Source of the DNA: Escherichia coli
GTDB taxonomy: Bacteria > Pseudomonadota > Gammaproteobacteria > Enterobacterales > Enterobacteriaceae
Assembly (NCBI RefSeq): GCF_045037415.1
Contig: NZ_CP173438.1
DNA: 64,000 bases
Strand: one strand, 5' to 3'
Made by a program: the position numbers. This document shows positions 1 to 3,000 of this stretch, in pieces. The first letter of the stretch is position 1. The number at the start of each line of letters is the position of its first letter.

Positions 1-3000
1 GCCTCTTTTGACATCAGCATTTTTATCTCTTTTCATAACCATCACTTTGATGGGTGTAGATTGATAAAATGTTTTTTGATTTCAATAATTGAATCAAGTA
101 TGGGTTTGAATAATGAAAAATCGATAGTTTTTCTATTTTCCCTTACTATATAAGTAGCAAATCTATCTTTTCCAAATGTAGTAGAACTGTCATGATTATT
201 GCTTTTATCGAAGCTTTTTCCATTATACTTCATTTGCAAAACTTTTGGTTCAAAAAAATCCTCTAGTGAAGAATAGTTATCCCCTGGTAATAACGGAGTA
301 AAAAGAACATATAAATTACTCTCTAAGTGATAAAACGCCCCTTTTCTAACATCCTCCGCTTTTTTTGGTAGATGCGAATAATCCTTTATTATTTGATTTA
401 TGAAGTCAGATGGCCCTGTGTCATTATCTAATAAAATTATCACTGGATTTTTAGGAGGCTGTTTTTCATACGCTTTACAAAGTAAACCATGTCGTCTGAA
501 AAACCTCGAATAGTCTGCAGCTCCACCAGACAAATCGAGAAAATATTTTTTCTTGTCATTGGTTTTAAATAAATTAACTTTTAACACTCTATTCTTTGTG
601 TTTTTTTCCTCTCTAACTAACTGAGGGTAATCCAAAAACAAAGAATCAATTGCACACTTAAGATAAACCGGGTCAGTTTTCCCTTCTGTTAAGATTGTTA
701 TTTGCTCATTTCCATAGAAATTTTTATAGTATAGGAATTTGCTGTATGCTTTCTCTCTGGAGTTAAGTCTCTGCTTAAAATCCAACCCAAATCCTTTAAC
801 CACATATCTCTCAGGACGCGCATTTTTCTTTGCTTCCACATTATTATATTTATCAAGCATATCGATAAATGCAAATCGCCCTTCTAATTCACTAAGGGTG
901 CCCTTTCTATGTTTTCCATCTTTCTCAATAAGTGTATACGAACCTTCAAAGTATAAAGAATGCGCCATCGCTCTTGTATTCTTTATATACTCTCTGCTTA
1001 CATTTATTTTTTTATTTACAGTTAAACCTGTAACTTGCTGTCTTGATGTACACCTAGACACTCTGTTTTTATTATGGTTTAAAGTGAAGCCTGCACGATG
1101 AATTTCTTCTACCAATATCTTACCTGGTTCGTTTTCTTTCTCATTAGAAACTAATGCATCAGGGATGTTTTTTTTGTTTGTTGAAAACGTAATGTCATCT
1201 GCATAGCGGCTGTAACTACAACCATATGTGACTGCTAGCTTTGATAATCTGAAATCTAAAATCCTACAAATAAGATTAGTTATTACTGGAGAACAAGGGC
1301 TTCCTTGCGGAAGCGATCCATCCAGGCAGGCTATCTGCGCAATAATGGTTGCAACATTTGGATGTAACTTGAAATTTTGGTTTGCAATAAAATATCCTCG
1401 CACGCGACCAAAATTAAAGGATGGGAAGAAATTCTCAATATCAATATTAAATACAATATTTTTATCTCGATGCCTCTCAGCATTTGTAATTATAGTTTTA
1501 TTCTTCTCAAAACCATGTGATACATTTTGTTTAATATTATTTTTTGCCCAAATTTCTTCCTGGCATATATATAGAAGTTCAGAAAGTCGTTGTTGAATAT
1601 CTTTCAGTTTTTCATCAGGAGCAAAGATCTCCCGCTCTCCTCCAGACTTTTTCTTTATAGTAAATTTTTTGTATTGATTTTCTGGCCTTATTCTATACAA
1701 AACATTAGTCAGAAATGTAACTTTAATCTGAAGCAAATCAGCCAGTTCAAATTTGTTACAACAAGCCTGCAGCCTTGCCAGATAGGTAGGTTTAAACATA
1801 ACAGTAAATTCCATTATTGATTATGTTAATGCACATGCAGGTACTCTTACGCATTTAACGGTGACGCCAAGATGACTTGACGGCAGTCAGAGGGCGAATA
1901 CTCCCGACCTTGTTAACACTGATTGCGATACCACAACCAACAAATCTACCTGCATGTGCCGTATTAAATTAGCATAGTCATCATATAACTCAAGCCCCCA
2001 ATCAATTTTTTTCAAAATCCTCAATAAGTTATAGATGGTTTGCGTTCTGTTCATTTCTGGCATCAGAGTGATGATTAGGCAAGTTAGCTGGGAAAATTTA
2101 TCCGGAGTATATACAAAGAAAGTAGTCAGCCCAGTTGAATCATCTAAACAAGACCAATTAACTAATTTATTTAAATGAAAAATAATGCTTTTGAGCTAAC
2201 CAATTATGCACTTAAGCTAAATTTACCGTTTTTGGGGCTAGCCCAACATCGAGGGCGCATAAGCTTTAGCCCACTTTTACTTTCCTGTTTTCTTTAGTAA
2301 CAGAAGGTTAACTATCAAATATTTTTGTTGGGCTATGTGGGCTAACAGTTTTCATATTTACGTGTTTTTTTATTCTTCTCCGGTTTCCGTTTCAGATACC
2401 GGAGTAAACAACAGCGTATAAGCCCAGGGACGTGCATGCTTGAGGTGTCTCAGCCGTGGCATACGTATCAGCCATCCCTCCACGCTGGTGGACTTTTTGA
2501 GCATTCCAGCCTCATGAAGGATTCTGCCGGCAGTATCCTTGCTGAGAGGAGTAGAACCTACGCCCTTCGCATTACGAATGCGAGCTAACTCCAAAATGAG
2601 TACGAACATGAGTACAAAAAAAATATATCATTAAATGTAGTATAAATTTCAATCAGATACAGCAAAAATTACAATTCAACGTCTAATTCCGCTAATACTA
2701 CTCTGGCGGTTAATAACGAGCCATTATGTGAGTTGCACGTAATGGCTTTTTTACGCCTGCTACGCGTCTTCTTTCAATTCTGAGTTACCAAAACTCATAA
2801 TCAGACTCCTGACAATATTAACAATGCAGCTTTTATGTGATAACAATCACAGTGCATTAACCGTTCAAGAGTTTGTCATGAAAAAAACATTTACCTTCAG
2901 CCTGTTAGCAATTGTCTTTGCAAGCCTGTTGAGTGCTTGTGTTCCCCACCATCATCACCGCCACAGCGATGGCCCTCGTGGTCCTGCGCCCTCCGGTAAG

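Follow-up and report, generated by a model that had tools for sequence, protein, structure and literature searches.

A probable Ec67/Eco2-family retron with an unannotated ncRNA in a ychF-integrated island of Escherichia coli

The closest described system to the locus reported here is Retron-Eco2 (Ec67), for whose mechanism we draw on two studies (PMC12916289, PMC12405507). Eco2 acts alone and its phage defence has been shown directly, with the YADD residues 199–202 and E374, D378, D460, D462, S513 and E515 all needed for defence (PMC12916289, PMC12405507). K562 is the catalytic lysine and the branch is at rG15 according to PMC12405507, and in cryo-EM of Eco2 the textbook msDNA hairpin is not formed (PMC12916289, PMC12405507). 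Variant I-C1 is defined by a reverse transcriptase (RT) C-terminally fused to a TOPRIM domain with EGxxD and DxD motifs, DxE being the mark of I-C2 (Mestre et al. 2020, PMC7736814).

We analysed a 64,000-nt stretch of E. coli contig NZ_CP173438.1 (the window), at the left edge of which a first-pass annotation had proposed a retron. By analogy with Eco2 the locus is probably an intact type I-C1 (Ec67/Eco2-family) retron acting as a one-protein anti-phage system, a reading to which we give a probability of about nine in ten. It is a real and correctly interpreted locus and a known system, not a discovery: the protein is already named in RefSeq and detected by PADLOC and NCBIfam, and the ST131 island that carries it has been noted in a preprint. 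The new details are confined to an unannotated ncRNA and a predicted 64-nt msDNA. A literature search returned no paper citing WP_000476153 and no experimental work on this sublineage, and the retron census supplement contains neither this accession nor the ncRNA sequence.

The 590-aa ORF with RT motifs YADD and VTG described in the first-pass annotation is present on the minus strand (42..1814), initiating at an in-frame ATG at 1814. With the conserved start, the second ATG (1799), the RT-TOPRIM fusion gene spans 42..1799 (minus), 585 aa plus a stop codon at 42–44. Homologues begin MFKPTYL or MFTTPYL, matching the ATG at 1799, and RefSeq makes the same choice for WP_000476153.1, under the name 'retron Ec67 family RNA-directed DNA polymerase/endonuclease'. 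In the 590-aa numbering, residues 53–265 form the RT core (Pfam RVT_1, E=5.5e-18; 1020..1658, minus), a span that includes the YADD active site (residues 204–207; 1205–1194) and the retron-specific VTG (residues 261–263; 1034–1026); the retron NAxxH motif is present as NAERH at residue 111. YADD aligns to Y199–D202 of Ec67 and is identical. Two further small ORFs, at 1887–2063 (overlapping the ncRNA) and 2370–2609, have neither family matches nor RefSeq annotation and were taken as non-genes.

The match to the Ec67-type (Retron-Eco2) family proposed from the architecture is borne out by profile and structure comparisons. NCBIfam NF038237 (retron_Ec67_fus) scores 702.4 bits, where the curated cut-off is 450, with all of its profile positions (1–572 of 572) covered. 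The best PADLOC matches are four RT-Toprim_I-C models aligned end to end (E=5e-214, residues 11–584), the top PADLOC matches are all retron RT models, and in the PDB the Retron Ec67 chains (9I2F/9I2G/9S1F and 9LM3) match best (E=4e-188). Over 578 aligned positions the protein is ~50.5% identical to Ec67; the RT part reaches 53% and the C-terminal part 47%. Motif V has the DxD form and not DxE, which fits variant I-C1, and I-C1 is provisionally preferred over I-C3 for its closeness to Ec67.

The suggested profile check of the RT clade places the protein in retron RT-Toprim type I-C/Ec67 and far from group II intron RTs (42.8 bits against an NCBIfam cut-off of 300) and DRTs (34.5 bits for the Drt2 model against a cut-off of 390); DGR and Abi RTs were likewise rejected on NCBIfam profile scores. 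An OLD-family nuclease, in which an ATPase is joined to a TOPRIM domain, was rejected since the N-terminal half is an RT (RVT_1) where the ATPase would be required, and the best PADLOC and NCBIfam matches listed include no ATPase model.

The C-terminal TOPRIM nuclease region (45..797, minus) contains motif IV as EGKTD (residues 377–381 in the 590-aa numbering; 686–672), motif V as DNDTG (residues 463–467, with DND at 463–465; 428–414), S516/E518, and the lysine of an FGK motif. Pfam-A does not detect the TOPRIM region, RVT_1 being its sole match in the protein, and the assignment thus rests on homology through PADLOC, NCBIfam and the PDB. Ec67 residues E374, D378, D460, D462, S513 and E515 each align to an identical residue, so that six of the seven published Eco2 TOPRIM catalytic residues are conserved, in agreement with the proposal that a TOPRIM-type C-terminus fused to the RT is the effector. 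The seventh, K562, has no mapped counterpart: by residue count its position corresponds to Asp in the PDB-chain alignment. A 26-sequence family alignment shows motif IV invariant at E, G, T and D and motif V at DND-G; E513 is invariant too, as is K544 (585-aa numbering), the lysine of the FGK motif, which was taken in place of K562. The trimer-contact loop (325–347) is partly conserved, with KKNARPERYVVKGFGL-DFKQRL on one side of the alignment with Ec67.

Upstream of the gene, on the same strand, the first-pass annotation had recognised an a2-msr-msd-a1 layout, and this holds. The a2 arm of the closing stem (1947..1959, minus; GCACATGCAGGTA) and the a1 arm (1831..1843, minus; TACCTGCATGTGC), which ends 31 nt before the conserved ATG, form a perfect 13-bp inverted repeat with 103 nt between the arms; when the 300-nt upstream region was shuffled 20,000 times, a perfect 13-bp repeat at that spacing arose in only 15 cases. 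Directly after the 5′ arm is the predicted branching guanosine (1946, minus), the equivalent of Ec67 rG15, followed by an msr RNA stem-loop (1921..1938, minus) equivalent to the Ec67 RSL (G20–U42). The RefSeq annotation has nothing over the ncRNA, and an Rfam search of window positions 1–3200 with E values up to 10 returned no retron or msr family and two chance matches.

Relatives share this organization. The comparison set comprised 52 related loci from viral contigs together with loci from E. coli genomes, and nearly all relatives have a 12–20-bp inverted repeat at the same place upstream, with arms 98–119 nt apart, followed by GAUUU; the a2 sequence is identical in two of them (L005 and L032). 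In a covariation alignment of 29 distinct family ncRNAs, the A-G-A branch site (29/29), the termination G (column 55) and GAGU before a1 are invariant. The a1/a2 stem shows compensatory changes in 12 of its 13 pairs, with 97.6% of cells paired, and the msr hairpin in five of seven, with 100% of cells paired; for both stems together 17/20 pairs covary and 98.4% of cells are paired. The observed score was reached in none of 500 column shuffles, and pairing falls to 28–43% when partners are slid by 1–3 columns. Layout and covariation mark the upstream RNA gene as a homologue of the Ec67 msr/msd. The msr is nearly unchanged despite ~50% protein identity and ~45% msd identity.

The msd template is predicted to span 64 nt (1845..1908, minus), from A1845 as the first template base to the invariant G1908, the equivalent of Ec67 G52. 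This follows the published rule that the branch is at rG15, that termination is at G52, and that dT1 is templated two bases before a1; applied to locus L009, which carries the canonical Ec67 ncRNA, the rule gives a 67-nt msDNA, the published length. The predicted msDNA of about 64 nt would read 5′-TCTTACGCATTTAACGGTGACGCCAAGATGACTTGACGGCAGTCAGAGGGCGAATACTCCCGAC-3′, with TCTTACGCA as its 5′ end and CTCCCGAC as its 3′ end, and its synthesis is presumably primed by the 2′-OH of G1946.

Folding of this region had been proposed with the expectation of msr hairpins and a long msd stem, and one half of that expectation stands. The single-sequence fold of the 141-nt region (-49.9 kcal/mol, z = -3.6) contains the msr hairpin, and the long msd stem is absent, the predicted msDNA alone folding like shuffled sequences (z -0.5). 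The stem is absent in Ec67 too (z -0.07 for the canonical msDNA), and the family median is -0.56. Because Ec67 also lacks this stem and cryo-EM shows no hairpin, its absence does not speak against a retron of type I-C.

A putative promoter for a transcript of ncRNA and RT lies immediately above a2 (1966..1993, minus), with a -35 TTGAGT at 1993–1988, TG at 1974–1973 and a -10 TAATTT at 1971–1966. An extended -10 of the form TGnTAnnnT is found at a fixed distance from a2 in the 11 family members aligned, Ec67 among them, and a TTG-type -35 lies ~16–17 nt above it in the aligned upstream regions. Transcription would start at ~1959–1961, the 5′ edge of a2, in agreement with the Ec67 RNA 5′ end one base before a2.

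The promoter bears on whether ST131 carries the retron as a silent or decaying passenger, either unexpressed or incapable of making msDNA, which we regard as very unlikely. The promoter is weak by the sigma-70 consensus, and a generic scan for that consensus called none on the minus strand near the ncRNA, which would suit an unexpressed locus, but the extended -10 is family-wide and keeps its distance from a2. The locus is also AT-rich, as the first-pass annotation had remarked (GC is 31–38% over 1–2500 vs ~50% in the adjacent dha genes), and AT-rich foreign DNA is often silenced by H-NS. Insertions are a further point for this reading: two ST131 strains have independent IS1 copies at different sites within the RT gene, and a third has IS5 upstream of the ncRNA. 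Against it, the ORF is full length with the mappable YADD and TOPRIM catalytic residues intact, the a1/a2 stem is perfect, the cassette is carried at ≥99% identity by 510 genomes, and the dN/dS relative to a copy in another genus is 0.08. The system is dispensable, since a few ST131 strains have an RT gene interrupted by IS1.

That copy is in Phytobacter, and it also defines the extent of the retron. Window positions 6–2032 share 84% nucleotide identity with a Phytobacter island locus that has different neighbours, and outside of these positions the match is limited to one weak stretch of 140 nt. The retron is thus a discrete mobile module of ~2 kb, the homology stopping at 6 and 2032 between unrelated flanks; this cassette (6..2032, minus) consists of the promoter region, the ncRNA and the RT-TOPRIM gene, and neighbours vary between copies. 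The first-pass annotation had put the downstream boundary outside of the window, which is not the case, as the stop codon is at 42–44 and the cassette homology ends at 6, inside it. Five of 131 ncRNA positions differ from the Phytobacter copy, corresponding to 96% identity for the ncRNA vs 84% for the coding sequence. The dN/dS of 0.08 is equal in the RT half and the TOPRIM half, and as judged from these substitutions the RT-TOPRIM gene is under purifying selection. The closest relatives are in Phytobacter and Enterobacter (84–86% aa identity), followed by Serratia and viral contigs (71–72% aa), and the closest match in GenBank phage genomes by tblastn has 39% identity.

The retron belongs to a 28.6-kb island inserted at the 3′ end of ychF and sits close to its distal end; comparison with strain Es_ST80, in which the site is empty, defines the island. 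A 12-bp direct repeat, TTCAACGTCTAA, marks its limits, with the right-hand copy at 2675..2686 (plus) and the left copy, outside the window, forming the last 12 bp of ychF; a tyrosine recombinase gene adjoins ychF within the island. The block, described in the first-pass annotation as sitting where other strains have backbone next to dhaR, is no simple replacement of that backbone but part of a larger island at ychF.

A complete Lamassu operon (PADLOC E values of 1e-105 for LmuA, 4e-57 for LmuC and 4e-176 for LmuB) follows directly after the retron, just beyond the window edge, on the same strand and 258 bp away. The first-pass annotation had allowed for a partner gene beyond the window, but the genes that follow are an independent Lamassu and this retron type works as one protein. 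It is extremely improbable that RT-TOPRIM and the adjacent LmuA-LmuC-LmuB form one composite system. Their proximity and shared strand would favour such an arrangement; however, cassette homology stops at window position 6, short of Lamassu, other genes follow the cassette in Phytobacter and none follow it in prophages, a terminator-like hairpin separates the retron from Lamassu, and Eco2 works on its own.

Among 5,426 complete E. coli genomes the cassette is present at ≥99% identity in 510, always on the chromosome, and strain names point to ST131 for these carriers. The 510 genomes are alike by clonality, and conservation among them tells little about selection. In fourteen further E. coli genomes a P2-like prophage hotspot is occupied by another Ec67-family retron, distinct from this one, with a SIR2/ATPase pair next to it. 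A transposon-fitness preprint lists the ST131 island with 'Lamassu and Retron' among gut-fitness clusters and suggests toxicity on disruption.

The preprint raises the question of whether an intact retron mainly stabilises the island or host fitness, as an addiction module with the msDNA as antitoxin and TOPRIM as toxin and with defence secondary. Expression of Eco2 slows growth without phage and the isolated TOPRIM is toxic (PMC12916289, PMC12405507), in keeping with such a role, as is the listing for gut fitness. Nonetheless we consider it improbable: the cassette is also found in classical defence hotspots, namely the gpA-portal slot of P2-like prophages in Serratia and, in Phytobacter, an island next to mutS where it sits beside a 426-aa integrase; here it is beside Lamassu; and defence by Eco2 has been directly demonstrated. 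No rival explanation outweighs the straightforward retron reading.

As a defence retron, and by homology to Eco2, the locus would be expected to work as follows. The promoter just above a2 would give a single transcript of the ncRNA and the RT-TOPRIM gene, and the 13-bp a1/a2 stem would fold the ncRNA. The RT would prime on the 2′-OH of G1946 and copy from A1845 back to G1908, yielding a branched, RNA-linked msDNA of ~64 nt, with the msDNA-msRNA hybrid remaining bound. The msDNAs would tie three RT-TOPRIM protomers into a trimer in which the TOPRIM active sites are caged. The msDNA would be nicked by phage DNA endonucleases, DenB in T-even phages and A1 in T5-like ones, and then degraded, and the uncaged TOPRIM would nick tRNA acceptor stems and other RNAs such that translation halts and the infection aborts. 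The locus may depart from Eco2 in its trimer geometry, trigger range and RNA targets, because identity is only ~50% for the protein and ~45% for the msd, and the trimer-contact loop is partly different. More tentatively, the locus may represent a distinct Ec67 sublineage whose diverged msDNA could shift the trigger spectrum or RNA-target preference away from that of Eco2. Fixation beside Lamassu in the pandemic ST131 clone could also give it a measurable influence on which therapeutic phages succeed there; overall we view this reading as doubtful.

The analysis provides a base-level annotation of the ncRNA (a2, branching G, msr hairpin, msd template and a1) for more than 500 ST131 genomes that lack it in RefSeq, and the predicted 64-nt msDNA is a directly testable product. 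It also assigns the retron to a 2-kb cassette of defined limits within a ychF-integrated island next to Lamassu. The results are useful for ST131 phage-therapy work, and they supply a further Eco2-type scaffold, diverged from the first, to set beside the solved structure.

Relative to Retron-Eco2 (Ec67; PDB 9I2F/9I2G/9S1F, 9LM3), the locus has in common a single RT-TOPRIM fusion of almost the same length (585 aa here vs 586 aa), identical YADD, EGxxD, DxD and S-x-E catalytic residues, and a gene directly after a1. The ncRNA layout is also shared, with a 13-bp a2, the branching G, AUUU, an 8-bp msr hairpin, the termination G and GAG before a1. It differs in sequence (protein identity ~50%, msd identity ~45%), in the length of the predicted msDNA (64 nt here vs 67 nt in Ec67), in the msr loop (4 nt here vs 3 nt in Ec67), in the partly different trimer-contact loop, and in its location, which is an integrative island at ychF here and a P2-like prophage for Eco2. 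The Phytobacter, Enterobacter and Serratia relatives have the same cassette and a near-identical ncRNA, whereas the integration contexts of the Phytobacter and Serratia copies (mutS island and gpA-portal hotspot, respectively) are different. Retron types XI (RT-protease), XII (RT-TIR) and I-B have a related RT, with PADLOC E values of 1e-98 to 1e-100 over residues ~15–360, and the only full-length PADLOC matches are to RT-Toprim_I-C. Unlike types XI and XII the effector here is TOPRIM and neither a protease nor a TIR domain; type I-B (RT with an OLD-like ATPase-TOPRIM) also uses a TOPRIM nuclease effector, but its separate ATPase-TOPRIM gene is absent here, where RT and nuclease are fused in one protein.

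The 28.6-kb integrative island of ST131 has the 3' end of ychF as its insertion site and is flanked by copies of the 12-bp direct repeat TTCAACGTCTAA. The right copy bounds the island at window 2675-2686 and the left copy is at the end of ychF (at about 27962 on the reverse strand of comparison locus L003); strains with an empty site, such as Es_ST80, have the gene order ychF-hyp-dhaR. Between the island end and dhaR there is a small conserved ORF (window 2824-3054, + strand) corresponding to the 58-aa RefSeq hypothetical protein WP_001311636.1, which has a signal sequence of lipoprotein-like type. 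This ORF is also found in empty-site strains, and is therefore part of the backbone and outside of the island.

Beyond the retron cassette, 330-450 bp inward from the right end of the island, the 7-mer TAGCCCA/TGGGCTA is present in four copies within 110 nt (window 2239-2345), two in each orientation, compared with an expectation of ~0.03 per 250 nt. There is also a weaker copy at window 2128-2136. A recombinase or a regulator may bind at these repeats.

The RT-TOPRIM gene is split by IS1 in two ST131 strains, AZ 186 (locus L057) and Ecol_AZ161 (L059), with the insertions at different positions, and a third strain, SK1144 (L058), has an IS5 upstream of the retron ncRNA. These three insertions indicate that the retron is lost occasionally and independently.

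A complete Lamassu operon (LmuA-LmuC-LmuB) is located 258 bp downstream of the retron and on the same strand, to the left of the window (coordinates 5268-8783 of locus L001, which extends in that direction); RefSeq labels it as an 'ABC-three component system'. A related island integrated beside mutS in Phytobacter CP027225.1 (locus L060, 3818-13758) shares DUF2787, RadC, HTH and recombinase genes with the ST131 island and carries the same retron cassette, adjoining a 426-aa integrase. In the position occupied by Lamassu in ST131, it has two unannotated genes, coding for 314 and 92 aa, which may represent another defence cargo. In the P2-like prophage of E. coli ES2, a gene pair encoding a SIR2-family protein and an ATP-binding protein (locus L002, 2577-5476) adjoins a different Ec67-family retron at the P2 gpA-portal hotspot.
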